Positions 2,099 to 21,017 of a stretch of 24,310 bases of DNA are shown here, piece by piece. Source of the stretch: an uncultured Chthonomonadaceae bacterium (GTDB lineage Bacteria > Armatimonadota > Chthonomonadetes > Chthonomonadales > Chthonomonadaceae); contig CAWIEK010000040.1 of NCBI GenBank assembly GCA_963835065.1, positions 1-24,310 on the forward strand. Direction: 5' to 3'. Under the pieces are notes generated by a model that did no database searches, had not been told where the DNA came from, and saw only the letters and a list, made by a program, of their open reading frames with translations. The translations under genes and the position numbers were made by a program. The first letter of the stretch is position 1; each line of letters opens with the position of its first letter.

Positions 2099-4319
2099 TC
2101 ATGCCTTCAGGCCATTGGGAACGAGCGGCATCGCCGTTAGTTTTAGGCCGGTAGCGTCCAAAATGGCGTTGCGAATGGCCGGGGCAATGGCGACAATGGG
2201 CGTTTCGCCCGCGCCCTCGGAGGGCAGGTCTTTGCGGTCTACCAGCACAACCTCTATGGGCGGCACATCGGCAAACCGGGGCAGGCGATATTGCGCGAAG
2301 TGGGGATTGACAATTTTCCCGTTGTCGAAATGAATGGCCTCGAACAGCGCGCCGCCCAAGCCCTGTACAACGGCTCCTTCCACCTGATTTTGCAGGTGCG
2401 TGGGATTGACAATCGCGCCGCACTCGAAGGCCGTGACAATCCGCGTCATCTGCACTTTGCCGCTTGTTTTATCCACCATCAGTTCCACGCATGTCGCCAC
2501 ATAGCTGCCTTTTTCCAGCCCGCAGGCCAACCCGAAACCATGTCCCGGCGTTGCCTTGCGCTTGTCCCAACCGAAGCGCGCGGCGGCGGCTTGCAGCGTG
2601 GCGGATAGGCGCGCGTCCTTGAGGTTTTTCAAGCGGAAGGCGAGCGGGTCCAGTTTTACCATTCGCGCCAGATCATCTATATGCGACTCGCGGGCGAAAT
2701 GGTTGGCGGTGGACGCCAGGCCGCGATACGAGCCTTCGCGCAGCGGAGCCTGGGCGCGGTGGAATTCCGCGCGCTGACTTGGAACATCGTAGGGCGCGCG
2801 GACGCCGGACGGCCCGGAATTGTAATTGTCATGCTCCCAATGCGTCAGGGTTCCATCCGGCTGCGCGGTGGCGGTAATGTCAATCACGCCCGCAGGCCGG
2901 AAGTATGCCCACGTAAACTCTTCTTCCCGCGTCCAGACCAGTTTGACGGGCTTGCCTGCCGCGCGCGCCAGCCGCGCCGCTTCCAGCGCCGCGTCTCCCT
3001 TATGCTTGCCGCCATACCCGGAACCGGTATCCGGCACAATCACGCGAATTTGCGCTTCGGGAAGATGGAAAAACGCCGCCAGTTCACTCCGAACGCCGAA
3101 CGGACTCTGCGTTCCCGTCCAGACGGTGAGATTGTCCCCCTGCCATTCCGCAAGGGCGGCGCGAGGTTCGAGGGGCGCATGGGCGATATAGGCAATGGTA
3201 TAGGTGGCTTTGAGCGTATGCCCGTCGGCACTAACGTCAGGTTTTTGCACGTCCTGCACCAATTTGGGCGTGTTCTGCGCCAATGCAGGCGCGTTCCCTT
3301 CCGCCTGTGCCTGCGCAGAGCGGGGGCGTAATTGCTCGTACAGCGTTTGGCCGGAGGGCTGTGGAACCGTCTGCCAGTCGGCTTTCAGGGCGGCAAGGGC
3401 GCGGTTGGCGAGGAGCGCGTTCGGAGCCGTCACGCCCACAAAATCGCCGTCCTGAACAACGGTCACGCCGTTCATGGCTTTGGCTCCATCCGCGTTCAGC
3501 GATTTCAAACTCGCATGAAAGGCGGCGGGGCGCAAAATCTTGCCGACCAGCATCCCTTCGCGCTTCATGTCAGACGTATAATGATGCCGTCCCGTAACAA
3601 AATCCCGCCCGTCCGCTTTGGGCGCGGACGTTCCCATCACTTTCCATTGCGCCGTCGGTGTCAGCGCGACATTGGCGTTGATGTTCTGCGTGAGTTTTTG
3701 CCCTTTGCACAGTTCGCCATACGTGAGCGTCCGCTGCGTGGGCGCGTGAGTGGCTTTGCCGTTTTCCAGCGTGACCGTACTCCGCTCCACCTGCCACTGC
3801 GCAGCGGCAAGGTCAGTGAGAACTTCGCGGGCGTTGGCGGCGGCGATGCGCAATTGGGGCGTCATATTGGGCGTGGTGCGGCTGCCGAACGTGCCGGCAT
3901 CATAAGGCGTCAGGGCCGTATCCGCCATTACCATCTGAATGGACGCGAACGGAACGCGCAATTCCTCGGCAACCGCCTGCGCCAGGGAGGTGCGGATATT
4001 CTGTCCCACTTCCGTCTTGCCGGTATACACCGTAACGACGCCCTTGTCATCAATATGCAGCCAAGCTGCAATATTCTGCGGCCCGCCCTGCCCGCCGCGC
4101 CTTCTCCCGCCACCGCTAACCGACTCCTGCGCTTCCGCCAAATCCGGCAGCGCGACCAGCATCAACACCCCCGCGCCCAAGCAGCCGGAACAGGTCACGA
4201 CGGGAAGGCAAGGATGAAGGATGAAGGATGAAGTGATGAGTCAATTGCCGATTGCGTCATCCTTTTCTCCTTTTCTCCTTGTTCTCCTTTTCTTCTTTTC
4301 TATTCGCTAATACCTTCAT
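2099..4319 (-). CDS. Molybdopterin-binding large subunit, xanthine dehydrogenase / isoquinoline 1-oxidoreductase beta family, with Tat signal; 5' end frameshifted
   Basis: ORF 2099..4198 has TGKTEVGQNIRT, GTFGSRTT, AHAPLEPR, GSGYGGKH, QVEGAVVQGLG and EGAGETP motifs. One frame correction near 4177 gives SRRDLFRLLG-AGVLMLVALP. Probable start is ATG 4319 after AAGGAGG, overlapping the small-subunit stop; ATG 4260 is an alternative. Confidence 0.9.
4210..4301. repeat. Bipartite short tandem repeat in the 5' region of the Mo subunit gene
   Basis: (AAGGATG)x3 at 4210-4230 and about five CCTTTTCT-like octamers at 4261-4301. Confidence 0.85.
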
Positions 4320-4801
4320 TTCGCCTCCTTATGCTGCGTCTGCGTCTGCGCGGCGGTGTGGACGGCGCGCAGGATGCGGCGGTACGTGCCGCAGCGACAG
4401 ACATTGCCGTTCATGGCCTGTACGATGTCCTGGTCGGTGGGATGGGGCTTTTTGCGCAGCAGGGCGACAGAAGCCATAATCATGCCGGACGTGCAGTAGC
4501 CGCATTGCAGGGCGTCCTCGGCGAGAAACGCTTCCTGCACCGAATGCAGTTGGTCGTTGGTTTCCAGTCCCTCGATAGTCAGCACGGCTTTGTTTCCGAC
4601 TGCGCTGACGGGGGTTATGCAGGAGCGCGTGACCTGTCCGTCCACAAGCACGGTGCAGGCTCCGCACTGGCCTTCGCCGCAGCCATAGCGGGTTCCGGTC
4701 AGGTCAAGATCGTCGCGCAGAACGCTGAGGAGGCTTTGTTCCGGTTCGGCTTCAACCGCATGGGCGCTCCCGTTGACATGCAGGGTAAGTTTGTTGGGCA
4801 T
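4316..4801 (-). CDS. [2Fe-2S]-binding small subunit (IorA/CoxS-like)
   Basis: GCGEGQCGACTV, SC, LQCGYCTSG and NVCRCGTY cysteine motifs. Start taken at ATG 4801 (MPNKLTL). Confidence 0.95.
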   Translation of the reverse strand: MPNKLTLHVNGSAHAVEAEPEQSLLSVLRDDLDLTGTRYGCGEGQCGACTVLVDGQVTRSCITPVSAVGNKAVLTIEGLETNDQLHSVQEAFLAEDALQCGYCTSGMIMASVALLRKKPHPTDQDIVQAMNGNVCRCGTYRRILRAVHTAAQTQTQHKEAK

Positions 4802-5092
4802 AGCTGAGTCTCGCAAATGTAGGCAGACAGAAAGTAGGATACAAAAATAGACCCCGTCCGCGCCCGGAAGTTAGCCGGGGTTGCGCAATAGCGCAAAGGA
4901 TGGCTGGCGCGTACAGTTGTATTATAGCAGGTAAAACCACCCGGCGCAGGAGCAAGTGTACAAAGTTAATCTGTGTCGTGGGAAGCCGCTTACACGGAAG
5001 CCTATTTTTGGTGTATACTTATAGTGGGTGCCAGAGTAGGTATTTGCCTTTTATGACTGGCAACATCGGCGTATTCACCACAGGATAAAACC

Positions 5093-5447
<355 letters not shown>

Positions 5448-5867
5448 CAGCGGCCAGCCAGTGCCGGACGAATTAATTACCGACACGCTGCTCGAATTGG
5501 AAGAACGCTTTGGCGCTGTCTCTTCCGAAACTCAAATTATTCGCGGCCTGTGGCGTCACGAAGACCAGCTCTTCCGCGATGAATTGATTCGGGTGTTCGT
5601 AGACACCGCGGACGTTCCTGAAAGCCGTCAGTTTTTATTGGAGTTTAAGGAACGTGCCAAAGCCCGGTTCCAGCAGATCGACATTTGGATGACCACTTAT
5701 CCGGTAGAAATACTGTAGAAGACAACGTTTGCTTTGCAGCCGAATGGATTACCGCACCAGACAGGCAGATTATCATGTCCTGTGCCTATCGAAAGGTTAA
5801 ACAAGTGGCCTGACGGTTCTCTGGCTGTGTAGATGTCGTAAACCACGTTGCGCCCGAACCTTATACA

Positions 5868-5901
5868 GCGCGCCCTCGCCTTTGCAGGTGGGGGCGCGTT
5901 T
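5868..5901 (+). terminator. GC-rich hairpin, terminator-like
   Basis: GCGCGCCCTCGCC / GGTGGGGGCGCGT 13-bp stem with three G-U pairs, then only a short T-tract. Confidence 0.5.
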
Positions 5902-6241
5902 GCCTGTCAGGGGGATTTCCGTAAAATTGCGTTATTTTCTAAGAATTTTGCGGGACGTAGGAATATCGCGGCAGAACCGCGAAATAGCCAGTGGAATGTT
6001 CCCCGATGCGCATTGCATGCGTTTCCATGCCGATTTAACGTGAAATGCCGCAGAGGGTTTTGCGCCGCGCCGTTGCCGCACATTCACTGCCGCGCCGTGA
6101 AACCATAAACCTAATCGTATCCTGTTTTCCTGTTTGCGCGCAGATTTCCACCCTGTCCCTGCCGCGCCCTCCCGCTGATTGGGCGCAGCCTGAATCTCAC
6201 CCGGCGTCACCGACGCACAGCCCACCGTTCAGGAGAAACGC

Positions 6242-6631
6242 ATGGAACCCCAGCCGCTTCCCCCGCAGGGCGCAACCCTGCTGATTGTTGACGATGAACC
6301 CATGATTACGGATTTGTTTCGCCAAGCCATGACCAAGCGCCGGTATCAGGTGAAAGTGGCGCACAGTGGCCGCGAAGCGTTGGAGATTGTGGATGCCCCG
6401 GACGCGCGCATTGACCTGGTGATTACCGACATGACCATGCCGGAAATGAACGGCCTGCTGCTGGCGCGCGAATTACACGCCCGCCTGCCTTCCGTGCCCG
6501 TCTTAATCGCCACCGGCCACGATCTGGACGCCGACCAAATGGACCTGCCGCCCAACGTCATTGAAATCATCCGCAAGCCGTACCAGATGCGCGTTCTGGC
6601 CGAGCGTATCCGGCAACTCCTGACAAAGTAA
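6242..6631 (+). CDS. Single-domain response regulator receiver (CheY-like)
   Basis: LLIVDDEP, DLVITDMTMPEMNG, IATG and KPY motifs. AGGAG RBS. Confidence 0.93.
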   Translation: MEPQPLPPQGATLLIVDDEPMITDLFRQAMTKRRYQVKVAHSGREALEIVDAPDARIDLVITDMTMPEMNGLLLARELHARLPSVPVLIATGHDLDADQMDLPPNVIEIIRKPYQMRVLAERIRQLLTK

Positions 6632-6640
6632 AAACCGCTT

Positions 6641-6743
6641 TACCGCGATGACACGGATAAAACGGATGAACACAGATCAAAGTCAAAGGATGGGATTGTG
6701 ATATTATCCGCGTGTATCCGTTTCATCCGTGTCATCCGCGGTA
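6641..6743. repeat. Inverted repeat built from 9-mer (ACACGGATG-like) units between convergent genes
   Basis: Left arm TACCGCGATGACACGGATAAAACGGATGAACACAGAT (6641-6677). Right arm ATCCGCGTGTATCCGTTTCATCCGTGTCATCCGCGGTA (6706-6743). Confidence 0.85.
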
Positions 6744-7762
6744 GATTTTGTTACGGCTGCAAGCGGCTCGGAAGCATAAGTATCCAATGCAAGCGTGTCC
6801 GGGCCGTGCTGCGTCAAGCGGAAGTAGCCGGCAGCCGCGATCATGGCGGCGTTGTCGGTGCAAAGGACGGGTTCGGGAGCCACGAGGCGCAGGGCTTCCG
6901 CATCGGCCATCGCCTGCAAGCCGGCGTGGAGGCTGCGGTTTGCCGCCACGCCGCCCGCCACGCAAATAGTTTGAACGCCCGTTTGCCGCGCCGCCCGCCG
7001 CATTTTCTCCACCAAAACCTCCACAATCGCGGCTTGATAACTGGCGGCAACATCGGGCAAGGGCGTTTGTCCCGCGTCTTTGGCGACGAATGAGCGCAGG
7101 GCGGTTTTCACGCCGCTGAAGCTGAAATCCAGGCTGTCGCCCATCCACGAGCGGGGAAAAGCAACGCGCTTCGGGTCGCCTTCCAGCGCAAGGCGGGCGA
7201 TGTTAGGACCGCCGGGATAGGCCAGGCCGAGCAGCCGCGCGCCCTTGTCGAACGCTTCGCCTGCCGCATCGTCGCGGGTCGCGCCAAGCAGCGCGTACTG
7301 CCCGTGCCCGTCCATGCGGATAATCTGCGTATGCCCGCCGGATACGATCAGGACAAGCAGGGGAAAAGCGTCGGGCGCGTCTATTAAGTCGGGGGCGGCG
7401 AGGAAGTTGGAATACACGTGCCCTTCCAGATGGTGAACGCCGACGAGGGGAAGATGGCGGGCATAACTCAGGGCTTTCACGAACGACACGCCCACGAGCA
7501 GCGCGCCCAGCAGTCCGGGGCGATTGGTTACGGCAAGCGCGTCAATGTCGGCAACCGTCATGCCCGCCGCGTCCAGGGCTTCCTGCGCGACGGGCAGCAT
7601 CCGCTCGACATGCTTGCGCGACGCCACTTCCGGCACGACCCCGCCATACCGCGCGTGTAAATCGGCCTGGCTGGCAATGATATTGGCGCAAACCCGCCGC
7701 CCATCCGTCACAATGGCCGCCGAAGTCTCGTCGCAGCTAGTCTCCACTCCAAGTACGTTCAT
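6704..7762 (-). CDS. tsaD: tRNA N6-adenosine threonylcarbamoyltransferase TsaD
   Basis: LGVETSCDETS, YGGVVPEVASRKH, VHHLEGH, VSGGHT, DDAAGEAFDK, FSFSGVKT, GGVAAN, CTDNAAMIA. Confidence 0.98.
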   Translation of the reverse strand: MNVLGVETSCDETSAAIVTDGRRVCANIIASQADLHARYGGVVPEVASRKHVERMLPVAQEALDAAGMTVADIDALAVTNRPGLLGALLVGVSFVKALSYARHLPLVGVHHLEGHVYSNFLAAPDLIDAPDAFPLLVLIVSGGHTQIIRMDGHGQYALLGATRDDAAGEAFDKGARLLGLAYPGGPNIARLALEGDPKRVAFPRSWMGDSLDFSFSGVKTALRSFVAKDAGQTPLPDVAASYQAAIVEVLVEKMRRAARQTGVQTICVAGGVAANRSLHAGLQAMADAEALRLVAPEPVLCTDNAAMIAAAGYFRLTQHGPDTLALDTYASEPLAAVTKSTADDTDETDTRG

Positions 7763-7768
7763 GCCACT

Positions 7769-7774
7769 ATTGTA
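7769..7774 (-). promoter_or_regulatory. -10 element (TACAAT) 6 nt before the tsaD ATG; likely leaderless transcript
   Basis: Minus strand GGTACAATAGTGGC-ATG with no Shine-Dalgarno. Confidence 0.55.
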
Positions 7775-8105
7775 CCTTGCCCCGCGCCAAAAGCCAAAAA
7801 GCCCCTCTTCTGGGCCGGCGCATGTAAACGGGAAAAGAAAAAGAGTATGTAGAGACAGCGTCGAAATCTTGGCAATACAGCGCTTCCAGCCCGGTGTCTC
7901 GTTGTGTCAGGTTGTATTAAGATGAGGCGTCGTGACCTCGTAAGCGTCAGGGCGAACGGGGAGAGTGACCAGGCATCTTCCAGCACCTCCCTTCCAGGTT
8001 AGATTGTTGAGAGGGGAGAGTTCATCGTTGAGAGGAACTCCGAACTTTTAACGGCCCGCCACCTGGCTCGTTGGCGTCTCTACTTAGTAGACGTGTGTAT
8101 ATTTA

Positions 8106-8131
8106 GACGAGGCAGAGGCAGAAAAGGTTTG
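8106..8131 (-). promoter_or_regulatory. Candidate ECF sigma promoter
   Basis: Minus strand CAAACC-N16-CGTC(TAA) fits the AAC...CGT pattern of ECF promoters. Confidence 0.4.
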
Positions 8132-8202
8132 TTATTTCTGCTGTTTAACCAGATATTTTTCTACTTTTTTGCGTGTTCTTTTGGCAAGGATTGGAACAAA
8201 AT

Positions 8203-8242
8203 AGCCCCTCTCCCGGCGCGTTGCGCGGTAAGGAGAGGGGCT
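8203..8242. repeat. CCCCTCTCC...GGAGAGGGG palindrome (REP-like or terminator)
   Basis: AGCCCCTCTCC (8203-8213) and GGAGAGGGGCT (8232-8242) form a perfect 11-bp IR just past the stop of the 8258 gene. Confidence 0.7.
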
Positions 8243-8257
8243 GGGTGAGGTTACAGC

Positions 8258-9076
8258 TTACGGATTTACCGTGATGTCGTTGGACGCGACAGTGTTGCTC
8301 CCGGATTGGGCGAACACATTCAGCTCGAATGGCGCGGGGGGTGACGCGATGATCACATTGATGGGGGCGCACTGAGAGTTCTGAGGCACGATCACGGCGG
8401 TTACGATGATGGGGTTTGCCGGCGTACCGATGTTTATGGTCGGCAGTTGAAAGTAGGATTGATAATCCTGGTTGACAGACAGGTAAACCGTAGTTGGCCC
8501 TCCGATGGATGGCCCAACCAGGCAAACGTGGCCTTGTGGTGAGTGAGAGCCGGACGAAAGCGGAGTGTTAAACGTGACGGATTGCACTTCCACCGCAGCC
8601 GGGAGCCGGGCATTAGCAGCCTGCGCGGGACCGGCGGTGGTGGGAACCACGATCCGGGCAGAAACCGGGGTGCCGCCGGAACACTGGGCGTAGACAAACA
8701 CGGCGGGCGTGTTGACGCCCAAATTGCCGCGGAAAATGGCAAAAACTTGCGCTGTGGTGTAACCCGCAGGGATGATGACTTGCGACTGAGGCAGGACAAT
8801 TGCCGAAATTGTGCTGGTAAGGCTGATGGGGCAATCCACAGTGAGCGGCGCTGCAATGGACACCAACCCGACCAGACTCTGATCGGCGATGCCCTTGTTT
8901 CCGGCGCCAGGCATAGTTTGAACGGGCGGGAAAGCCAAACTGACGGGCTGACACTGCGGCGGAATGAATGGGCCCGATATATCGCCAACATCGGCATCTT
9001 CCTGAGCCTGTTGCTGTAAATCTGCCGGGAGCAGGTAGTCTTCCGATTGTTCACCGGTTTCATGGGATATGTTCAC
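8258..9076 (-). CDS. Beta-strand-rich hypothetical protein with two Ig-like repeats (272 aa)
   Basis: AGGAGGA RBS before GTG 9076. Two similar segments: GLVSIAAP...ISLTS...VIIPAGYTTAQV and GHVCLVGP...VYLSV...VIVPQNSQCAPI. Ends ITVNP. Confidence 0.75.
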   Translation of the reverse strand: MNISHETGEQSEDYLLPADLQQQAQEDADVGDISGPFIPPQCQPVSLAFPPVQTMPGAGNKGIADQSLVGLVSIAAPLTVDCPISLTSTISAIVLPQSQVIIPAGYTTAQVFAIFRGNLGVNTPAVFVYAQCSGGTPVSARIVVPTTAGPAQAANARLPAAVEVQSVTFNTPLSSGSHSPQGHVCLVGPSIGGPTTVYLSVNQDYQSYFQLPTINIGTPANPIIVTAVIVPQNSQCAPINVIIASPPAPFELNVFAQSGSNTVASNDITVNP

Positions 9077-9191
9077 GTTGTGTCCTCCTGGAAAATGGTT
9101 CCGCGTCTGGAAAGATGCCGATAACAGCCTGCTACAGCAGCGCGGATTACAATTGCGCATGATTTATTTTAGCTTATTTTTGAGACAATAG

Positions 9192-11969
9192 TCAACAGGC
9201 AATATGCGCTTTCACATAGGCGCATGCCTGCTCAAGCGTCATTGCCGTTCCCTGCGCCCAAAGTGCAGCGTAAGCCTCCGGCGACAGGCAGGTCGTCGCA
9301 GCAGCAAGCATACGCGCTTTCTGCTCTTGCTCCTGCTCGGTGCGCTGCGCGCCTGCTGCTTCCCTGAGCGCCTGTACCGCGCCCGACAGAAGAATGGTTT
9401 GTTCGCTCAACCCGCTATCCCAGAACAGTTCCGCAAATGCGTCCAGCGTAAACGCGCTGCCATTTCTGTCGTTGAGCGCTATGCGTATTTGCAAACTATC
9501 CCATAGAAAGCGGTGCGCGGCGGCGAAATCACGTTGCCTGCGCGCTACATCACCGAGGTTGACCAGTTTGAATCCTGCTCCCCAGCGGTTGCCAAACTCT
9601 ATATCCAAGGCAAGGCCTTCCTCATAGTAGCGCCTTGCCTGTGGATAATCTTCAAGACAGCAGCAGACCACGCCCAGGTTGCCTAACATAGAAGCCATAT
9701 AGGCGCGATCATCACCCTCCCGGTAAATTGCCAGACTCCGCTCGAAGTGAGAACGCGCTTCTGCATACTCGGATGCGTTTACGAACAAAATGCCAAGGTT
9801 GTTCAGCGCAGCCGCAATGCCACGCTGATTTCCCACGCTTTGCCACAGATCGATACTCTGCTGGTACAAACGGCGCGCTTCCTCGCTTTGTCCCTGCGTA
9901 TTGGCAACGATAGCCAGGTTGTTCAGGGCTTCCGCCATGCCCGCCTGGTCGTTAATACTCTCGCTCAATCGCAGACTTTCTTCCAGCACGCGACGCGCTT
10001 CCTCGTATTCGGCTTGTCGCGTTGCCAGAACGCCCAGGCCATTCAGAGCTTTGGCGCGGAGGCGTTCGGCGGTTTGCGGGCTGCGCGCGAGCGCGCCACT
10101 GAGCCAGCTTCGGCCCTCCTGAAAGTGGCTGCGCATGGACCAGAAACGCCACAACGACGATGCCAGTTGCAGGCGCGTCGTGTTGTCCGTTGCCCACTTC
10201 AGCCCCGCGCGCAGGTTGTCGTGTTCGGCTTCCAGCGTTCGCAGCCAATGCGCCTGCTCCGCGCCGGTCAGTTTCGGCTCGGCTTCTTCGGCCAGTTCGA
10301 GGAAGCAGCGCAAATGGGCTTCGCGGGCGGGTTCGGTTTCCCCCGCTTCCTCCAATTTTTCCGCCGCGTACTCCCGCACGGTTTCCAGCAGGCGATAGCG
10401 CGGCGCGTCTTCCTGTTGGGCCGCGTGGCCTTCACGCCCGGCTTCCTCCACAACCACGAGCGAAGCGTCCGCCAGTTGCGACAGCAGGTTCAGCGCGTCT
10501 CCCGGTTCCAATTCGCCCCACTCGCACACCGACTCTGCGCCTTCCAGCGTCCAGCCGCCCGCGAACACGGCCAGGCGGCGCAGCAGCACGCGCTCACCGG
10601 GGGAAAGCAGATCGTGGCTCCAGTCAATCAGGGCGCGCAGGGTTTGATGCCGTTCCAGAACGTCGCGCTTGCCGCCCACCAGCAGCTTGAAACGCTTGTT
10701 CAGACGCTCCGCGAGCTGCTGCGGCGTCAGGGCGTTGACGCGGGCTGCGGCCAGTTCGATGGCAAGCGGGATGCCGTCCAACTGGCGGCAGATTTGAGTC
10801 ACGGCGGGCAGATTGGCCGGCGTCAGCGCAAAGTGGGGGCGCGCGGACGTGGCGCGTTCCACAAACAGGCGCAGCGAAGCGTGGCGCATGGCGTCTTCTA
10901 CTGTGAGCGCGGTTTGGGCATCGGGAACCGGCAGGGAAGGGATGCGCCAGGACTTTTCGCCCGCGATATGCAGGGGCTTGCGGCTGGTTGCCAGTACGCG
11001 CAGGCCGGGGCAGGCTTGCAGCAGCGCGTTGGCGGTTTGGGCGCAGGCGTCCACCAGATGCTCGCAATTGTCCAGCAGCAGCAGCAAATTCCGATCCCGC
11101 AGACTGTCGCACAGGGTTTGCAGCGCGTCCTGGTTCGGCTCATCCGCGATACCGAGCGTTTTGGCAATGGTTCGCGCCACCAATCCGCCGTCAGTCAGCG
11201 CGGCCAATTCCACAAACCAGACGCCATTGGCATAATCGTCCACGGCTTCGGCTGCCGTTTGCAGGGCAAGCCGGGTTTTGCCGCAGCCGCCCGCGCCCAG
11301 AAGCGTGAGCAGGCGCGTTTGCGTGAGCAGTTCACAAACGTCATTTAATTCCTGTTCCCTGCCGATGAACGAACTCAACTGTGACGGCAGATTGTGCTTG
11401 AACGCGGTCAGGGAGCGCAATGGCCCGAAATCGTCCAGCCAGTCGGGATGCTGCAGTTGGTAAATGCGCTCCGGGCGCTGCAGGTCTTTGAGATGGTGCA
11501 GGCCCAAATCGCGCAGGAACACCCCGCCTTCCAATTCGTCGCGCACCAGTTCGGCAGTGGCTTGCGTCAGGAGAATCTGCCCGCCGTAGCCTGTTGCGCG
11601 GACACGGGCACAGCGATTGACCGCCCCGCCATAATAATCCTCGGCGCGTAAATCGGCTTCCCCCGTATGCAGCGCCATGCGTACCTTGATGGGCGTGTCA
11701 GCAGGCCATTCTTCCGCCCGCAGCGCATGTTGAACAGCAACCGCCGCCCGCGCCGCATCCACCGCAGACGCAAACGTTACAAACAGGCTGTCGCCCTCGC
11801 CCCGCTTCTTGATCACCACGCCATTGTGCCGCGCGGTTCCCGCTTCGATCAAATCCTCATGGCGTGACAAGGCTACGCGCATCGCGTCGGGAAATTGATC
11901 CCACAGCGGGGTGCTGCGTTCCACATCGGTCAGCATAAACGTAACGGTTCCACTTGGTAAGGATGGCAT
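9192..11969 (-). CDS. Class III adenylate/guanylate cyclase domain + STAND (AP-ATPase/NB-ARC-like) + TPR protein
   Basis: VTFMLTDVERST, GEGDS and VRMALHTGEA...DYYGGAVNRCARV (cyclase). GAGGCGKT, LLLLDNCEH and LDGIPLAIELAAAR (STAND). Repeated ALNNLG TPR units. Confidence 0.93.
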   Translation of the reverse strand: MPSLPSGTVTFMLTDVERSTPLWDQFPDAMRVALSRHEDLIEAGTARHNGVVIKKRGEGDSLFVTFASAVDAARAAVAVQHALRAEEWPADTPIKVRMALHTGEADLRAEDYYGGAVNRCARVRATGYGGQILLTQATAELVRDELEGGVFLRDLGLHHLKDLQRPERIYQLQHPDWLDDFGPLRSLTAFKHNLPSQLSSFIGREQELNDVCELLTQTRLLTLLGAGGCGKTRLALQTAAEAVDDYANGVWFVELAALTDGGLVARTIAKTLGIADEPNQDALQTLCDSLRDRNLLLLLDNCEHLVDACAQTANALLQACPGLRVLATSRKPLHIAGEKSWRIPSLPVPDAQTALTVEDAMRHASLRLFVERATSARPHFALTPANLPAVTQICRQLDGIPLAIELAAARVNALTPQQLAERLNKRFKLLVGGKRDVLERHQTLRALIDWSHDLLSPGERVLLRRLAVFAGGWTLEGAESVCEWGELEPGDALNLLSQLADASLVVVEEAGREGHAAQQEDAPRYRLLETVREYAAEKLEEAGETEPAREAHLRCFLELAEEAEPKLTGAEQAHWLRTLEAEHDNLRAGLKWATDNTTRLQLASSLWRFWSMRSHFQEGRSWLSGALARSPQTAERLRAKALNGLGVLATRQAEYEEARRVLEESLRLSESINDQAGMAEALNNLAIVANTQGQSEEARRLYQQSIDLWQSVGNQRGIAAALNNLGILFVNASEYAEARSHFERSLAIYREGDDRAYMASMLGNLGVVCCCLEDYPQARRYYEEGLALDIEFGNRWGAGFKLVNLGDVARRQRDFAAAHRFLWDSLQIRIALNDRNGSAFTLDAFAELFWDSGLSEQTILLSGAVQALREAAGAQRTEQEQEQKARMLAAATTCLSPEAYAALWAQGTAMTLEQACAYVKAHIAC

Positions 11970-11997
11970 GGTGTTAGGTGTTAGGTATTGGGTGTTA
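11970..11997. repeat. Heptamer array (GGTGTTA)x4 abutting the start codon of the cyclase-STAND gene
   Basis: GGTGTTA GGTGTTA GGTATTG GGTGTTA at 11970-11997. TATAAT on the minus strand at 12010-12015. Confidence 0.85.
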
Positions 11998-12031
11998 TTA
12001 TGCGCTCAAATTATACCTCCGTATTGATGAA

Positions 12032-12565: not shown

Positions 12566-12574
12566 TGGTATGTA

Positions 12575-12657
12575 GGTGTTCAGGGTATTGGGTGTTCGGG
12601 TGTTGGGCTTCTGTCTTCTGCTTAATGTCTAATATCTAATGTCTAATGCCTAATGCC
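12575..12657. repeat. Bipartite tandem repeat spanning the GH stop to the rimI start
   Basis: GGTGTTC/GGTATTG units at 12575-12605, CTTCTG(T/C) x2, and TAAT(G/A)(T/C)C x5 at 12623-12657. Confidence 0.85.
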
Positions 12658-15526
12658 TTCCCCGGCATGTTATACAGAACGCGCGTCGGTTGCGCGCTAT
12701 GATGGATTTCTTTGCCGTCCAGGTAGACGCTGTAGCCTTTGAAGCCGGGGGCAACGTGCCCGCCCTTTTCATCCCACGCGATGCTTACGTCATGGCCGCG
12801 ATATGCCTGCCCGTCCAGCACGTAGTACGACCATGCGGAGGGCGGCAACAGAGAGTCAATTTCCAGCACGTTGTCATTGCGCGGAACCAGCCCGATCAGA
12901 TGCCGTATCAGCGGGTCTACCCAGGTGGAATGGTTGTAATCGCGCTGCGTGGTCTTCCACTCGCCCGTATCGCCGTTGTAAAATTCGCCTGTCCAGGGAT
13001 ACATTGGATTTTGGTTATGGTACTGTACGCGGGTAAACGATGCGAACAATTCCAGCAGCTTTTCCCGCGTGAGCGCGCCCGTTTGCGAATGGCTTGTTTG
13101 GAATTGGCTGGACGGATAATCGCTTGACTGGTAATGCCGGAGCGTATTCGCCATTGCGGTCATTACCAGGCTGTTGGCGTGGGGCCACGAGGGGCCGTTC
13201 CACATGCAGATGCTTCCACCCGGACCGACAGGCCAGCCGTTTTGGGCATACGCAGGGCAATCTTTGGACGCGGATGCAAGCGGCCAGCGCGTCCAAAATT
13301 GGTTAGCGTTGAGCGCGACATTCCAAATCGCTTCGTAACCCTTGCCCTTCGTTGGCATGTCGAACGCAAACGGGTACAGGCCGATGATTTCCTTTGTCGG
13401 CGCAGGCGCGTTGTCACTCGCCCGCAGGGAATGGAACCAGTGCGTATCGGGGTTCCACATTTGTGTCAGCAGCGCATCCCGCGTGTCGTCCGCCAATTGC
13501 TGCAAGGGCTGCGCGTCCTATTGCGGTTCAGTTCGCGGTAAATGTCGGCGGCGGCCTGCGCGTTGGCGAAGTTGTACGCGGTCAAATCCACGCGGCGCAG
13601 GGGCGTCATGTACTTGCGGTCTTCGCCACTGCCGCCGCCCGTTTTATAATCGGCAAACGCGAAGAAACTCGGCTGCCACTCCATGCCCGTCCACCAGTGG
13701 CTGTCCACCGTAAGCAAGGGACTGCCGTTTTCGCCGTACACCTTGCGCCAGCCCTGCGCGTTGCGGGCAACGGGGTCGGCAACCGCGCTCAAAATCTGCC
13801 TGTCCGGGTGAACCAGATATGCGTCCCATGCGGTAGAAGCGATCCAATCGGTATACTGCCCGCCCGCCTGTCCTTTGGGCGTGATGTGCGAGGGGAAAAT
13901 TCCGTCCGGGCGCGGGTTCTCCGTCCACGTCTGCAAATGCCCCCAGGCATAAGACGGGTCGCGCAGCCAGCGCGATTCATCCACCTGATGCCCCGCGCCA
14001 TAAGAAATCACGTTGGCGTACCAATCGGATGTCCACCTGCCTTCGGCAAACGCCCGATGCCGCAGCCGCCCCAGACGCGGGTACATGCTGTTCTTTTTGA
14101 TATTGTACCAGCGATGGGCGTACATCCTGGTTACAAGCGGGTCGGAACAGGCGAAATGCGCGGTATTGGCGTCGAACCAATGCTGATAGGCCGCTGTCTG
14201 CGTTCGGAGGGGGTCCGGCTGGATAAGTATAGCCGTCAGTTTCGTCTCGGCCTCCTCTTTCGTGTGCCCAACCGCGCAGGCAAACGTGTACTTGCGCGTT
14301 TCTCCCGGCTTCGAGTCCGTTGCAAACTGTGCGTATTCGCGCTCTGGCCGTCAGTTCCACTGGCGGCTAAAAACAACGGAAAGCCTTCCACATCGCGCTG
14401 TTCGGCGTACCCACGCGGCGCGGTGAGCGACGAGACCATGTGGATTGAAAGGGGAATGTTAAAGGAAAAAGTCAATTGGGAAGCGCTCGACGCGGCTTTG
14501 AGCGGCGAGTCCATGCGAATTTTCACCGTCTGTACACTTCGTGTCGAATCCGCACCATCACCCGCGTCACCAGCACATCGTTGTCCGTGATCCATTTGTC
14601 GGCGCTAAAGTTGAGGGTTGAGAGTTGATAGTTGATAGTCTGCTGCCATCTGACTTTTCTTGTCCCGTCTTCTTTTCTTTTCTCCTTTTTCTCTCCTGTT
14701 TCCTGTTCCCTGTTCCCTGTCATCCTTTGCGTAAGCCGGTTCCACGCCGTACAACCCCGTGTACAGGTTGGTTCCCTGGTTACGGAAGGTGAAGCGGATT
14801 TGCTCGGCTTGTTCGGGCGCGATGCCTGAAAAAGCGATGGAAGTTTGACCGGGCTTTGGGCGTGATGGGGCGCGTGGCGACGTCATGCCAACTGCCGCTT
14901 CGGAACAGTTCCACGCCAACGCTTTCGGCAGGTGGGCGCAGCCGCCGCCCTGCTCCACATCGGAGAAAAAGTACAGGTCAGCCCCACAACTTGCACGATT
15001 TGCCGAAGTCTACGGTGTAGGTGTCCGTTCGATGCTTGCTGTTCCAGCATGTCCAGCGCTTGGAAGGGGTAAACGGTTTGGAAAGCGGGTTGTTCACGTT
15101 GTCGGTCGTGTAGGTGAACGAGGCGGACGCGGTAAGCAGGCTGCCGGGCGTGCCGACAAGGTGAACGTGACTCGGCATGTACCGCGCTTTGTCCACAATG
15201 TAATTGTTGTCGCCGCTCCGAACGCTCACATCGAACAGGCCGGCATTGTCTTTGTCGCTGATATACAGCAGGTGAACGCCGTCCCGAAACGCCCACCCCT
15301 GCGGACTGGTCGCCCACACGATTTCGCCCGAAGCCCCAAACGGAACCTCAGCGTCGTAAGGCCGCGCCAAAACGGTATCCACGCTGCTGCGGCTGGAGGC
15401 GAAAACTCGGTGCGGCAACGGCTTGCCTGCTGCCAGGTGTACGGTTTGTCCCGCATGAGCCGCCTCCCCTCCCATTATAAAAAGCAATGCCGCCAATATC
15501 GGCAACTTCCTATGTGTTCTGTTCAT
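12636..15526 (-). CDS. Large secreted glycoside hydrolase, MGH1/GH63-like (alpha/alpha)6 domain with N-terminal beta domains; several frameshifts
   Basis: Signal peptide MNRTHRKLPILAALLFIMGGEAAHA after AGGAG. Fragments in alternating frames carry YAHRWY, ESRWLRDP, TGMEWQPS, WNGPSWPHANS, GEFYNGDTGEW, DYNHST and YRGHDVSIAWD. Confidence 0.82.
14610..14722. repeat. Bipartite tandem repeat inside the GH coding region
   Basis: GTTGA(GG/GA/TA) x4 at 14610-14637, a CT-rich run, and CCTGTT(T/C)-type units x4 at 14695-14722. Confidence 0.85.
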
Positions 15527-15585
15527 GCCACTCCTGCAAATGATTATTTTATGTAATAAATACAATAACCTTAAAATAAAAATCC

Positions 15586-15704
15586 GTAGGGACACAACAT
15601 GTTGTGTCCTCCTCCGGCTGCCGCATATTCTCCTTCGGCGGTGTATTCCCCCGGTGAAGGACAGCGCGGACGTAGCAAGCGGGCACAACATGTTGTGTCC
15701 CTAC
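15586..15704. repeat. GTAG-type REP doublet (REPIN-like), 119 bp
   Basis: GTAGGGACACAACATGTTGTGTCC (15586-15609) and inverted GGGCACAACATGTTGTGTCCCTAC (15681-15704). Each is a self-palindrome with a GTAG foot. Confidence 0.85.
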
Positions 15705-15760
15705 ATTCTTGCTTTTCGGGTAAATAACGCTTTATTTCAATGGTATCAATCCTGCAAAGT

Positions 15761-18608
15761 TCAATACGCAATGTTCTCCGCATTAAGGAGATGCACGTCA
15801 AATTGGAGCATCGCGTCGGGCGGAATCGTGCTGCCGACGCCTGCGCTGCCGTATCCTAACGACGGCGGAATTATCAGGCGGCACGTACCGCCGACGCGCA
15901 TGGTGGCAATGCCTTCTTCCCAGCCCTTGATAACCTCGTCCTTGCCAAGCGTGAATACAAACGGCTGGCCGTGCTTGCGCGACGTGTCGAAGACCGTGCC
16001 GTCCGCGAATTTGCCGACGTAGTGAACGGTTAATCGCTGTCCTTTGTGGGGCAACGCGCCGGTTCCTTTCACCAGATCAACGATCTTCAGCCCGGAGGCC
16101 GTGACGCGCATTTCGCCTTCCTGCCCCTCCAATGTACGCAGCAGTTTGCCGGTACGCGCGACCCATATTTGTACGCCCTGCGTGTAACTGCCCGTGACCA
16201 GCCTGTTGCCGGTTGGGTCGAAGGCGGCGGACGTGTAGCCCACATAAGGATCTTCCCCATCTGCCTTCAGCGCGCTGCCTGTTTTGGGAAGAAGCGGCAG
16301 GACACACAGGCGCGTGGCCTTTGCCGTTCCCAGAACGACCACTTCATGCATTCCAGAAAGCAGGTTCGCAACACGAGTTTCGCGGGGCGAGAAAACAAAT
16401 CCGGTACTCGACAGCGGGTACACAACCGGAGGCGTGGACAAACCCGTTTTTACAATCCAGCGGCGGGCAGGCGAGCCGTCGGCAACGATGGTTTTGCCGT
16501 CGCGCGCAAACGCAGCCATTGCAATCAGCGTCAGTTTGTCCCGATGATAATAGCGCTGCCCGGTACGCGCGTTCCAAACATCCATTCGGCTTTCGATTCC
16601 GGCGGCAACCGAAGGCGTTTTCGGGCTATCCACAATGCTGACAAGCGTATCGTCTACGGGTGAAAACGCCATGCGGGGAATGTCACGAACGCCGGTGTCA
16701 AATGCCTGCGCCTTTTTGCCGGTTTGCGCATCCCAAACGCAAACGGAGGAATGGGAGGCAGGATTCCAGCCGTACTTTGCCGCCGCCAGCAGTTTGCCGT
16801 CATGCGAAAACAGGACGGTGCTGTAACTTCCGCCCCCGGCAAGCGTTATGCGCCGTTTGCCGGTCTGCATGTCCCAAAGGCTGACCACGCCCTTGCTGTC
16901 CGGGATCGCCAGGGTTGCGCCGTCAGGAGAACACGCGAAATTATGCGTGAAACGTCCGCCGTTTTTGAAATGTACGCCGCGCTTTGCCGGTACGCGCATC
17001 CCACAGCACAATGGCGCTGCCACTGCCGAGGATCGTTTTGCCGTCCGGGGAATACGCCACCTGCCAGATGGTTTCCGCAGGCGCGTCCGCCGAATCCGAA
17101 CCAAAGGGGGAAGCGAACGCCGTTTGCAGCCATGCGGACGTGGAATTTTCCGATGTGGCAGATGGATTGTCGCCGGAAGTGGAGGGGGACCCTTCCGGGG
17201 CTGTTTGCGCAATGTTGTATCTGTCCGTATCCCGATTTCGATCACGGGAACTTCCGCTTCCTGCGAAAAGGCAAAGACAGATAAAGCCAGCAAATCCCAA
17301 GCCTACCATCCAAGTTATGGCTGCTGTGGCTACAGAATGAACGCTATTCGGGTCGGCAGGCGTATCCGGCATGGGCGGATACGCCTCGTTGTAAGGATTT
17401 ACAGGCTTGATGCTTGTGGGAGCAGGGGCTTTCGATCTTTCCCGTTCTCGCACGGCCTGCTCGGAGGGGAACGGGTCCAGGCCGCGCAACTGCGTTTGCT
17501 TGCGAAGACACCAGGGGCAGGCGTCCAGATGATTGCCGTAAAAGTGCTGCGGATTGGCGTCACAGCGCCTTAGATTGCGCCCCGCTTCATCCAATGCGCG
17601 CTGCCACGTTCGGGCGTCCGGGCGCAAATCGGGATTGTCATGCCCCTCCTCAAAGCACAGCACAAACAATTCGCGCAAAGCAGGCGGCAGCAATTCAAAC
17701 GGCGGCGCATAGCGCGTGTTGGCGCGATACGGCACGTCCCGGTTGCCATACGGAAAATGCCCCCGCGCAATCCGCTCCTCAAACGGCGGGGGGTCGCCTT
17801 CCTCCAGATACACCCCCGCAAACGGATGCGTCCCCTCCATCAGCATATGAAAAATCAGCACCGCCAGCGCGAAGAGGTCGTGGGACGGAGATAAGGATGA
17901 AGGAATTGTTGATTTTCGATTTTCGATTGCCGATTGAGTTTCTTCTGTTCCCTGTTTCCTGTTCCCTGTCTCCTCTTCTCCTTGTCTCCTTGTCCCCTTG
18001 TCTTCTGTCTCCCCCTCTTGCATTTCGGACGGCGTGAAATCGGGCGTGTGGACGGGGCAGGCGTAGACGTGGCCGGTTTGGGGGTCGCGCACCTGGAAGG
18101 AGTCGGCGTCTACCAGCGTGACGAGCGCGGTTTGGGTGACTAAGACGTTGGAGTGTTTGAGGTCGCCAATGACGTAGCCGCGCGCATGGAGGGCGCGAAC
18201 GGCGGCAGCCAGATTGCGGGCGGTGCGCAACAGATAGCGGTAATCGAAGAGAGGACATTCGATCAGGCGCGTTTGCGGGTTGTAAACATCAATCACCTGC
18301 ACGGCGTCATGGACGCGCCCCATTAAAAACCCGGTTACGCGCCCCACATCGTCCGCATCGCACAGCAGATCGAGCGGCCAGGCAATCGAAACGTGCCCGT
18401 CCCTGCCTTCCGGCACATCCGGCGGCAGGTCGCGCATGACGGTCAATTTGGCGATCCGCTCCGTCAGGTCTTTATCGGCCTCGTACACCTTCGCCGCCAA
18501 ATGGGGCGATCCCGACACGGCATAAACCCGCGCCTCGCCCCCCTTGCCGAGCGGCGCGCTCGTGTCTACGGTCAGCATTTCTGCATTGGATTGCCGTCGT
18601 AAGCGCAT
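15761..18608 (-). CDS. YegI/TerY-associated Ser/Thr kinase + Cys/His finger + TM + WD40 repeats + FKBP PPIase; one frameshift near 16964
   Basis: GKGGEARVY, AAKVY, IAWP, IGDLKHSN, DADSFQ, HDLFALAVLIFHMLMEGTHPFAG, CDANPQH...CPWC, TM WMVGLGFAGFICLCLFAG, and WD units (VAYSPDGKT, LFSHDGKL, AFDPTGNR). FKBP at 15761-16111 (VHYVG, FDTS, VIKGWEEG, IPPSLGYG). The two ORFs join at an A5 run. Confidence 0.85.
17891..18015. repeat. Bipartite tandem repeat in frame inside the kinase domain
   Basis: GATT(TTC/GCC/GAG) heptamers from 17911, CTGTT(C/T)C-type heptamers at 17945-17972, and CCTTGTC(T/C) octamers x3 at 17980-18003. Confidence 0.88.
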
Positions 18609-18618
18609 AGTTTCTCCA

Positions 18619-18740
18619 TAGGGGTCAGGATTCAGGGGTCAGGGGTCGGGAAGGAGCCTGCCTGCTCCTTTTGTTATGAATATAGTCAAGATTAACGGTA
18701 AACGACTCACTGACCCCTGACCCCTGAATCCTGACCCCTA
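18619..18740. repeat. 122-bp palindromic element with perfect 29-bp terminal IRs made of CAGGGGT heptamers (MITE-like)
   Basis: TAGGGGTCAGGATTCAGGGGTCAGGGGTC (18619-18647) and its exact reverse complement (18712-18740). Confidence 0.9.
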
Positions 18741-19409
18741 CTGACTTCTTCCCGGCCTCGGCAGCGGGCGCTGCTCCTCGCTTTCCAGACGCGCTTGCGA
18801 CAACGCGGACACGCTTTTGGAAAGGTAATCAATCATCTCCTGAAAACTCTGGTCCGCCAGGTCAATCGGCTCGCGGACGACCATTTGGCGCAGGCGGGCG
18901 ATGTCGGCTCCACGCACCCCGATGGCGAAAAACAACACGCTGCGCTTGGCTTCTTCCTCGGCAATGCGCCGAATTGCGCTTTCCGTCACGTGTTCCGGCT
19001 CGTCTTCGGGCTTACCGTCCGTAATCAGGAAGACATGCGGGCGGAAATAATCAATTTCCAGTTCGCGCAGGGCTTTCTTGTGCTTTTGCAGCAGGTCGAG
19101 CGCCTGATGAACCCCACTGCCCATGTGCGTATAGCCGCCCGTCGTTAGAACAGGCGGCACAAAGCGGCTGATAGGGACGAATTCCTGCGCCACCGTGACC
19201 TTACTATCAAAGGTGACGACAGCCACATCCACCCGTTTCGAGGCAACCGGGTCTTTGCGCAAATTTTCGTGCAGGGTGCGCAGGCCGGCGTTCAATTGGG
19301 CAATGGCGTTGCCGCGCATGGAGTCGGACGTGTCCAGCAGCAGGACGCACGGACAGCGCGGCTCCGGGTTGTTATAAAACTCAACCATGTCTTCCAGATT
19401 GGAGTTCAC
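18738..19409 (-). CDS. TerY/YegL-family vWA domain protein (223 aa)
   Basis: NPEPRCPCVLLLDTSDSM (MIDAS DxSxS), GYTHMG, YFRPHVFLITDGKP, FFAIGV. GTG 19409 follows AAAGGAGG. Confidence 0.92.
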   Translation of the reverse strand: MNSNLEDMVEFYNNPEPRCPCVLLLDTSDSMRGNAIAQLNAGLRTLHENLRKDPVASKRVDVAVVTFDSKVTVAQEFVPISRFVPPVLTTGGYTHMGSGVHQALDLLQKHKKALRELEIDYFRPHVFLITDGKPEDEPEHVTESAIRRIAEEEAKRSVLFFAIGVRGADIARLRQMVVREPIDLADQSFQEMIDYLSKSVSALSQARLESEEQRPLPRPGRSQ

Positions 19410-19434
19410 GCTTCCTCCTTTTACGTTAGTGATT

Positions 19435-20979
19435 TTACTCTGTTGCGCCTGCGGCTTTGAGCGCTTCAACAACGTCCGCGCTATGGTACTGAGTCGCCGC
19501 GTGGAGGGGCGTAACTCCCTTGTTGTTCTTCAAGTGAACATCCGCGCCCCGCGCAATCAGGAATTTGGCGATTTCAGGATGGCCCCATTGTATCGCCAGC
19601 AAGAGCGGCGTTGTGCCGTTGGAATCACGGGCGTTGATGTCCGCGCCTCGTTCCAGCAAAAACGTTGCGGCGGCGATGATCTTTTTGTTCTCTGCTTCGC
19701 GCCAATTGGTCACGGCGGACGCAGAATTGGTTTTAGGAAAGGCGCTTGGAAAAGCGAAAATCGCGCTATGCAGGGGCGTTTTGCCGTCCGCGTCATGCGC
19801 GTTGACGTCGGCGCCTTTTTCCAGCAGGGTTTTCATCAAATCCAGACTGCCCGCTGTCGCCGCTGCCGACAAATACCGTTGCTGCCAGATCGTTGTGCCG
19901 TTGATATCCGCGCCCTTTTCCACCAGAAGTTGCGCCATTTCCAGCGAACCCCACATAAAGGCGTCCGCCAGCAGGCTGTGTGTTGTAAAAAAGCCTTTGT
20001 TGACATCCGCCCCGCGTTCAATCAGCAGGCGGGCGGCGGCAACGTTATCCGCGCGAACGGCCACCGCAAGCGGCGAAAACAAACCCTCTCCTCCTGCCGC
20101 TGCACCTTTGTCCAGCAGGTCGCGCGCCAGCGCGAGGTTCTGCTGGACAATGGCAAAATTGAGCAACGCGGGTCCATCCGCGGAGCGAACATCGAGAACC
20201 GCGCCCTGCGTTTGCAGAGTTTGCACGATTGCCGCCTTGCCGCGATTGGCGGCGTAGCCCAATGCGGATAATCCGGCGTTGTCGCGCAGGCTGACATCGG
20301 CGCTGCGCTGAAGCAACAGGCGAACGGCATCCTGATTGGCGTTTTGCGCGGCGACCATCAGCGCGGTTTTGCCGTCCCGGTCCTGCGCGTTGATGTTCGC
20401 GCCCGCATCCAGCAGAAGATGCAGCGTGGAAGCGTTGCCGCTCCCACTCGGCTCCCACGTCAAGACGATCTGGCCGGACTGCGCATCTGTTGTCTTCACC
20501 GCGCCCAAACCAAGCAGATACTGCGCGGGTTCCGAGCGCAAGCCCTGTTCGTCGCGCAGGGAAAAGGTGAGATGCTCCCCCGAATATCCCAATCCGGTCT
20601 GATGCCCCATGTCGCTGATTTGCCGCAACTGCCGGGCGCGCTCATACACGCGCTCGAAGGAATTGGGATTGTAACCGGCGGCCAGCAGCAGCGCGGTTCG
20701 CCCCTGCCCATCGCGCGCATCCAGACGCGCGCCCCGCGCCAATGCCCCGCGTACGGCTTCCAGGTTGTCGAAGGCCGCGTTTGCCAGCAGCGACTCGTCG
20801 TGAACGCTCAAACCCTTCGCCACGCTCAAGCCGGGAAGCGGCGGCACGGACGAAGCCGCAGACTGCGCGTTCGCGCCCGGCGTCAGCAGGCAAAGACCGC
20901 CAAGCGCCAGCGCCATCCACAAGCGCGGCGTAGCGATGCCAAAACCAGAAGAAGTCTGTTGAGTCATGGGAACAGTCAC
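19435..20979 (-). CDS. Secreted ankyrin-repeat protein
   Basis: Signal peptide RLWMALALGGLCLLTPGANA. Many GAD(V/I)NA.D..G.T(P/A)L units. Start is GTG 20979 or ATG 20967. Confidence 0.92.
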   Translation of the reverse strand: MTVPMTQQTSSGFGIATPRLWMALALGGLCLLTPGANAQSAASSVPPLPGLSVAKGLSVHDESLLANAAFDNLEAVRGALARGARLDARDGQGRTALLLAAGYNPNSFERVYERARQLRQISDMGHQTGLGYSGEHLTFSLRDEQGLRSEPAQYLLGLGAVKTTDAQSGQIVLTWEPSGSGNASTLHLLLDAGANINAQDRDGKTALMVAAQNANQDAVRLLLQRSADVSLRDNAGLSALGYAANRGKAAIVQTLQTQGAVLDVRSADGPALLNFAIVQQNLALARDLLDKGAAAGGEGLFSPLAVAVRADNVAAARLLIERGADVNKGFFTTHSLLADAFMWGSLEMAQLLVEKGADINGTTIWQQRYLSAAATAGSLDLMKTLLEKGADVNAHDADGKTPLHSAIFAFPSAFPKTNSASAVTNWREAENKKIIAAATFLLERGADINARDSNGTTPLLLAIQWGHPEIAKFLIARGADVHLKNNKGVTPLHAATQYHSADVVEALKAAGATE

Positions 20980-21017
20980 TTTCTATTTTCCTATTTCCTA
21001 CTGCGCATTTTCGTGTT

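Follow-up and report, generated by a model that had tools for sequence, protein, structure and literature searches.

Tandem heptamer arrays in an uncultured Chthonomonadaceae bacterium are probably the arms of hairpin mini-elements related to the 23S intervening-sequence cassette

Short arrays of tandem heptamers and octamers lie within genes and at gene junctions of contig CAWIEK010000040.1 (C40) from an uncultured Chthonomonadaceae bacterium (assembly GCA_963835065.1; here G000, 8.0 Mb, 92% complete), and this raises the question of what they are and how they spread. The whole stretch of 24,310 nucleotides (nt) that was analysed is referred to as the window. An earlier note on its sequence had seen in the arrays a single family of mix-and-match micro-elements, spread by a dedicated, transcription-oriented mechanism and not by independent slippage. 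With moderate rather than high confidence, we regard the arrays as the arms of hairpin mini-elements of about 120 bases, likely the non-autonomous, gene-less counterparts of the four-helix-bundle cassette of 23S rRNA intervening sequences (IVS), and likely spread by templated copying that repeatedly overwrites occupied sites. The hairpin mini-elements are likely selfish.

Arrays in the window and in the genome were called with Tandem Repeats Finder (TRF) and counted at a score of at least 40 and at least three copies. The six main arrays noticed before were confirmed (4210-4239/4260-4301, 11970-11997, 12575-12607/12619-12658, 14609-14639/14681-14720, 17911-18013 and 18620-18647/18710-18739), and the one at about 20980 was weak, with about three units recognised by eye (Table 1). 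Most are two-armed modules as described in the earlier note, except that those at 11970 and 20980 are single arms and that at 18619-18740 is a complementary hairpin and not a mixed module; this stretch folded at -93.5 kcal/mol. The module at 4210..4301 is made up of a left arm of the AGAAAAGG type, short AATCGGC/ACTCATC bits and a right arm of CATCCTT. At 12575..12658, the GGCATTA left arm provides the stop codon of the MGH1-like gene and the AACACCC right arm precedes the acetyltransferase gene. The exact words that had been seen shared between unrelated loci of the window are present, but they are family words, of which the whole genome contains 17 and 167 copies. Six of the seven arrays are supported by short-read contigs of independent runs. 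Those at 11970-11997 and 20980-21000 are each crossed by a gap-free contig (X2 records 9 and 14), and contigs pile up on the modules at 12575, 14610, 17891 and 18619 (65-116x versus a background of about 7x in X2). A long-read artefact as the source of the arrays was therefore rejected.

A scan of the whole genome found 2,344 arrays of period 7 and 576 of period 8 (2,920 in all), compared with none of either in a codon-block shuffle, and about 25 unit families dominate these arrays. Based on our own gene calls (6,813 genes), 3,474 arms were grouped into 2,118 modules, 624 of which have complementary outer arms, that is terminal inverted repeats. The arrays are a real genome-wide feature and not the product of independent slippage. 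With so few dominant families, arms of 4-5 copies, family-specific spacers and whole modules that recur in unrelated flanks, the single mix-and-match family proposed for the window holds.

The order of the arms is non-random throughout the genome, as the earlier note had expected. Of 884 multi-arm modules located within genes or between co-oriented genes, 832 had a first arm richer than the second in G over C, 29 a poorer one and 23 an equal one. When units were typed as left or right, a typing derived from the same data as those tested, 728 of 873 two-arm modules were left-right and one was right-left, the remainder being same-type or untyped. Stacks with three or more arms also ran left-then-right (149 of 157 fully typed modules). 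This order had been taken as a sign of transcription-oriented spread, which was not upheld: it is unchanged by reverse-complementing, and is also found between convergent or divergent genes (104 left-right, 0 right-left). The arm order is therefore a property of the element and gives no evidence for transcription-oriented spread.

Co-oriented gaps contain 642 multi-arm modules, of which 480 are complementary and 162 mixed. The hairpin module measures about 120 bases; a spacer of about 55 nt is enclosed in it by two inverted arms, each with 4-5 heptamer or octamer units. Arm length has a median of 31 nt (interquartile 28-33), 941 of 1,148 hairpin arms hold 4-5 copies, and the spacers, with a GC content of 44%, peak at 52-59 nt. 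Of 431 spacers, 128 match another spacer, and the arm family is shared in 198 of 235 matched pairs. The spacers of the AGTAGTC family have diverged to 64% identity with the family majority; spacer conservation is alike for A, C, G and T, and 32 of 63 spacers are flipped relative to the gene. Copying of whole modules is seen directly among the 22 near-identical spacer pairs listed, six of which lie in unrelated flanks, 15 in segment duplicates and one in an intermediate situation. Spacers as captured fragments of the genome were rejected, as hits outside modules were found for 19 of 431, mostly short or in other repeats.

Variant units are often mirrored between the two arms, in 22 of 33 AGTAGTC modules (control 16%) and in 44% of 50 AGGCATT modules (control 20%). 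The sense strand of the hairpins showed no excess of G-U pairs (138 versus 161), which speaks against selection on arm pairing at the RNA level and, together with the mirroring, points to copying at the level of DNA.

The position of the modules, unlike the order of their arms, does track transcription. Modules occupy 9.8% of the gaps between co-oriented genes, 7.1% of those between convergent and 3.6% of those between divergent genes, and lie next to stop codons: the upstream stop was at most 20 nt away in 59 of 68 cases, for which a uniform model expects 29, and in 65 of 65 cases in convergent gaps. The stop codon itself lies inside an arm in 167 of the 480 complementary modules of co-oriented gaps. 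An arm was found within 30 nt of 25 of the 76 tRNA and tmRNA genes. The 23S gene carries three such inserts, two of them absent in the congener G002; one is a gene-less hairpin module at a helix tip, in the hairpin at RF02541 positions 1206-1226, which we take to be helix 45 and the classic IVS site. An RNase III gene (rnc) is present in the genome. Insertion beside stop codons and tRNA ends and at the tips of rRNA helices left no detectable target-site duplication: in all eight family groups, direct-repeat matches between the flanks departed from shuffled pairing by no more than about one standard deviation. Duplications at old sites may have decayed. The bias in position may reflect targeting, or selection against other positions. 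An array of tRNA genes (G000:C49:430274-432100) has heptamer modules in most of its spacers; in G002 these are conserved in part and swapped in part.

G002 was sampled over 844 kb, about 11%, and 132 modules were mapped, a few rows being duplicated segments. Their counterparts held an arm in 91 cases, a weak arm in two and none in 39, as compared with an arm at four of 150 module-free junctions taken as control. Several of the empty sites, which the earlier note had proposed to look for, are clean, with only a short gap from the stop codon to the ribosome-binding site. Of the 91 occupied sites, 74 share no unit with G000; the site is retained and its units are replaced.

Internal modules are carried by 203 of the 6,813 predicted genes. 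For 14 of 20 randomly drawn host genes an NCBIfam family match was obtained at E<=1e-10, with QueG, GalT, a RecQ-family helicase and a glycogen debranching enzyme above the cut-off. Inside open reading frames (ORFs), 40 of 242 multi-arm modules are complementary and 202 are mixed; these non-complementary modules have varying peptides, and in 195 of them the sense strand holds more A than T. The units in genes are mostly stop-free and hydrophilic, stop-free hydrophobic units being almost missing, and the encoded peptides have a median length of 34 residues and a mean hydropathy of -1.63, versus +0.87 for the antisense frames. The difference in length with the congener was a multiple of three for 28 of 33 modules within genes, compared with 24 of 74 between genes. 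Mixed junctions with shared linkers recur across unrelated genes. Each family has an A-rich arm whose complement is T-rich, so a hydrophilic two-arm insert must be mixed. The A-richness of the sense strand, concentrated in coding modules, fits selection on the peptide, which explains most of it. Removal of the modules from the mRNA is disfavoured by the conservation of frame, with five exceptions.

Frame calls in this assembly are noisy, as the window contains single-base indels without counterpart in the contigs of a close relative (13518, 14335, 14338, 14545, 14851, 14934, 16247 and others). The module at 4210..4301 has an in-frame TGA mid-way, which may be a sequence error or may be followed by a restart at a later TTG. 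As sequenced, the module at 14609..14722 causes a one-base frame shift; the MGH1-like gene has several indels absent from the relative's contigs, and the shift is probably an assembly error. Several frameshifts were seen in 12636-15691 and 15761-18608, where the MGH1-like gene is split and the kinase/WD40/FKBP region blurred. The predicted structure of the kinase with the insert was uninformative (mean predicted local distance difference test score 46.8).

The link with the four-helix-bundle family comes from the genes that the repeats enclose. The genome has three PF05635/TIGR02436 genes (on C8, C25 and C33), and each is enclosed by inverted 7/8-mer arms, in the sense of its operon, as the earlier note had suspected for small genes of this type. 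At 20 of 23 PF05635 loci from the genome and its relatives, weak PF05635 hits being left out, pairing of the flanks exceeded the 99th percentile found in 1,144 control genes. One of the genes in G000 sits at a site that has a gene-less module in G002. At the junction of the response regulator gene and tsaD (6631-6704), the window has a hairpin of 9-mers (6640-6735). The G002 counterpart of this site holds a four-helix-bundle gene flanked by inverted 8-mer arms, and in G001 the 3' end of tsaD contains a heptamer-like hairpin; different repeat systems share this site. None of the seven modules in the window holds a four-helix-bundle ORF between its arms. Where four-helix-bundle genes of different genomes occupy the same position (L058/L059 and L063/L064/L065), their arm units differ, which suggests that the arms can change while the gene stays.

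Array density was 366 per Mb in G000, 192 in G002, 140 in G023 and 10 in G001. The last genome is 97% complete and no PF05635 gene was found in it; it had two arrays in 200 kb. In a 200-kb sample of G023, the two commonest units were those that flank its two PF05635 genes. In 13 more genomes, the comparison of density with the presence of PF05635 did not discriminate, with two arrays in 369 kb. The proteins match the solved structure of XCC0516 (2GSC), and weakly match the model of Avd, the accessory protein of diversity-generating retroelements (E 1.5e-7 to 4.3e-4; 20-32 bits versus a cut-off of 80). Such retroelements resemble the present system in this match and in the replacement of content at fixed sites. 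As an explanation they were rejected: Avd is far under its cut-off, variation is not adenine-specific and no reverse transcriptase lies on the same contigs. The two reverse transcriptases of the genome (G000:C49:681660 and C50:52695, the latter presumably retron-like) are on contigs other than those of the PF05635 genes.

From these observations the following mechanism is proposed. New arm blocks of about 30 nt would be written into or over an existing module, with other modules of the genome as their source, and the second arm would be copied from the first at the DNA level, mirroring variant units. In coding sequence, selection would retain stop-free, hydrophilic and frame-keeping, thus mostly non-complementary, combinations, which would explain both the mix-and-match modules and the A-rich sense strand. 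In RNA the hairpins would be tolerated, either excised by RNase III or as harmless stems. Finally, the four-helix-bundle protein would act in trans as a helper; this is the weakest step, and we hold it to be slightly doubtful. A dedicated enzyme behind the spread is what we infer.

Several results weigh against this reading. The PF05635 gene is not sufficient, because six genomes that have it gave one array in 177 kb sampled, and the two largest families of units (AGTTGAT and AGGCATT) flank none of the three PF05635 genes found in this genome of 92% completeness. The spacers are not remnants of four-helix-bundle genes, for which hits were at chance level only. We know of no enzyme activity of the four-helix-bundle protein, and that it mobilises DNA is our inference. 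No mirroring of variant units was found in two families, AGGTGTTC and AATGATG. Mixed modules outside predicted ORFs are still A-rich on the sense strand (83 versus 34), an excess that escapes selection on the peptide unless these modules are mis-called gene ends. The gene predictions are our own, and indels and duplicated segments are present in the assembly. At orthologous sites, units resemble each other more than chance would predict (distance 1.93 versus 3.08), and a few of 18 spacer pairs are clearly inherited, most not; some turnover of units thus appears to be gradual and in place. Unit distances, inherited spacers and empty sites together point to the arrival of whole modules plus in-place rewriting of arms.

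A bolder version of the mechanism, which we think unlikely, does without a transposase. The four-helix-bundle protein, as an Avd-like pentamer, would hand hairpin RNAs released by RNase III to a host polymerase, which would extend both 3' ends of a break with arm blocks of about 30 nt; the break would lie at an old hairpin or at an RNA-unit boundary, and the blocks would come from one or several templates. If true, this would account for the left-then-right stacking, the mixed arms, the missing target duplication and the reuse of old sites, it would make the excess of heptamers and the 23S IVS one phenomenon, and surface loops in about 3% of the cell's proteins would be continually rewritten.

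As an alternative, host repair alone, in which long hairpins break in replication and the ends copy similar arms by gene conversion, would make the four-helix-bundle gene a passenger sheltered in stems that RNase III removes. This agrees with the reuse of the same sites in G002, the unit distances below chance and the retention of some spacers, as well as with the exchange of units around the same gene in relatives, the complementary arms that enclose other genes and the existence of PF05635 genomes with few arrays. It leaves unaccounted for the full modules of about 120 nt at clean empty sites without homology, and the near-universal wrapping of one gene family, and we consider it a doubtful explanation, with a low probability.

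Another possibility is that the host selects the stems for RNA processing or stability, the structure being kept while the sequence turns over. The closeness to upstream stops, the preference for co-oriented over divergent gaps, the arms beside tRNA and tmRNA genes and the presence of rnc are all in its favour, but the transcribed strand shows no G-U excess, many sites in the congener are empty, arrays are missing in most relatives and the 203 genes with internal modules are left unexplained, which makes it quite improbable. That polymerase slippage with a preference for seven bases makes each array locally is hardly credible, even if slippage has been put forward for heptamer excess (as cited in the accessible parts of PMC4692102 and PMC4679880) and copy number does differ by one unit between sites: the small number of shared families, the constant length of the arms and their inverted pairing, spacers held in common, copies of whole modules and the strict order of left and right arms all oppose it. 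As an origin slippage is largely refuted; it may trim arms.

Dispersed heptamers are reportedly also known from cyanobacteria, as the STRR repeats described by Mazel in 1990; tandem heptamers dispersed in many copies, by which STRR are defined, are what was found here. In Xanthomonas and Nostoc, heptamers prefer four units, form inverted pairs, lie near the upstream ORF and occupy shared sites with variable content, and their function was left open (PMC4692102, accessible parts). For the TAACTGA repeats of Beggiatoaceae, filtering by stop codons and no evident mechanism are described (PMC4679880, accessible parts). Taken jointly with STRR, these systems share with the present one the heptamers, the four units, the inverted pairs, the proximity to the upstream ORF, the depletion in divergent gaps, the shared sites with variable content and the stop-filtered orientation. 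As far as these sources could be consulted, each study dealt with one unit, and G-quadruplex, regulatory or slippage accounts were given with no mechanism named; here, about 25 families take one another's place at fixed sites, with a link to PF05635.

The IVS in the 23S gene of Coxiella burnetii is excised by RNase III, encodes an S23p ORF and has tandem heptamers on its 5' side only (PMC4990558, accessible parts). It resembles the modules described here in the insertion at a 23S helix tip, the long stem, the tandem heptamers adjacent to the ORF and the protein family (S23p/PF05635). In contrast, the rRNA inserts of the present genome are without ORF, and the same units occur at about 2,100 mRNA, tRNA-spacer and coding sites, a genome-wide repeat family that the accessible parts of PMC4990558 do not describe. 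By insertion at a helix tip, only the rRNA copies belong with the 23S IVS. With REPIN/RAYT elements (PMC3116915, accessible parts) the modules share a copying unit made of an inverted doublet whose spacer is less conserved, a candidate helper gene that is present once and flanked by the repeats, and insertion in or beside existing elements. They differ in that the arms are tandem heptamers and not REP palindromes, the associated protein is no HUH transposase and many copies are translated.

A size of about 120-150 nt is shared with the Rickettsia palindromic elements, which reside in frame in unrelated conserved genes as the modules do, and with the ERIC and Correia MITEs (inverted-repeat transposable elements of miniature size), hairpins close to the ends of genes, transcribed together with these and serving as RNase substrates (both PMC10969869, accessible parts). 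Unlike either, most in-gene copies are non-palindromic chimeras (188 of 226 in the comparison with the Rickettsia type), they encode no conserved peptide and no target-site duplication was detected; the terminal inverted repeats of MITEs are present in the modules, most in-gene ones excepted. The elements work like REPINs and Rickettsia elements, and fall outside both groups by protein type, in-gene palindromy and target duplication. No description that joins inverted heptamer arms, PF05635 and the overwriting of sites was found in the literature searched, in which older and subscription papers were poorly covered.

Complementary arms also enclose or adjoin other cargo, named by eye as a toxin-antitoxin-like pair, a MarR-like gene, a duplicated small ORF and an esterase-like gene. 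Among the ORFs between complementary arms at most 2.5 kb apart, read by eye without a scan, none was recognised as a transposase. The association of GxxExxY genes with the repeats that the earlier note had raised was found in part. Three such genes (G000:C19:8329, C39:76631 and C3:174081) have 8/9-mer flanks resembling the ACAGAGGC family, inverted in at least one clear case, and represent a parallel gene-plus-arms system.

Other repeats were seen in the window. A T run, an A run of about 58 bases and AT-rich filler break what appears to be a single small ORF at 5156-5273, likely a long-read artefact. A separate G/C-rich hairpin of a different repeat type lies behind a stop codon at 8207-8242. 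An inverted pair of GTAGGG-headed palindromes, which we take to be REP-like, is located at 15585-15705; the genome has 33 such pairs, and this stretch is replaced in runs X2 and X3. Rfam at the gathering threshold gave no match in the window, and nothing but rRNAs in L037.

Table 1. Repeat features of the window, their counterparts in relatives, and other loci with complementary arms
Feature	Position	Strand	Context	Counterpart in relatives
Mixed module	4210..4301	-	N-terminal leader region, molybdopterin oxidoreductase subunit gene	G002: in-frame module, other left unit GGGAGAC; G001, G011, G016: variable leader without repeats
Inverted 9-mer tandem module (hairpin)	6640..6735	.	Response-regulator/tsaD junction; related site	
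Single right-type arm (AACACCT/AATACCT)	11970..11997	-	End = start codon of cyclase-NTPase-TPR gene	G002: no clear array; G001: different mixed repeat stretch
Mixed junction module	12575..12658	-	Between MGH1-like gene and GNAT acetyltransferase gene	G002: empty
Stacked mixed module (GGGAACA, AGAAAAGG-type, AACTATC/AACCCTC)	14609..14722	-	Within MGH1-like glycoside hydrolase gene	G002: other units at same place
In-frame stacked mixed module	17891..18015	-	Ser/Thr kinase-like gene; hydrophilic insert of about 40 residues	G002: other units, 42 nt shorter; G016, G018, G005: 11-13 residue segment without repeats
Complementary hairpin module (AGGGGTC x4, spacer of about 60 nt, inverse arm)	18619..18740	.	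vWA gene stop codon to just before kinase start	G002: related arms, weakly similar spacer; G016: empty
Weak single left-type arm (GGAAATA-like, about 3 units)	20975..21000	-	Directly behind stop codon; by eye, under TRF threshold	G002: absent
Other cargo, complementary arms	G000:C59:31863-32657, C63:117368-118137, C12:75778-76254, C45:100780-101740			

Heptamer repeats, 23S intervening sequences and the PF05635 protein have each long been described without being explained, and in this genome they are tied together at high copy number. To this is added a measurable behaviour, in which old sites are kept and their content is replaced, and which makes the mechanism of spread directly testable by comparison of strains and by a marked-module assay. 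The order of the arms alone, as a warning, is uninformative on transcription. At coding sites the outcome is filtered, which yields variable hydrophilic inserts in the peptide chains of about 200 proteins.

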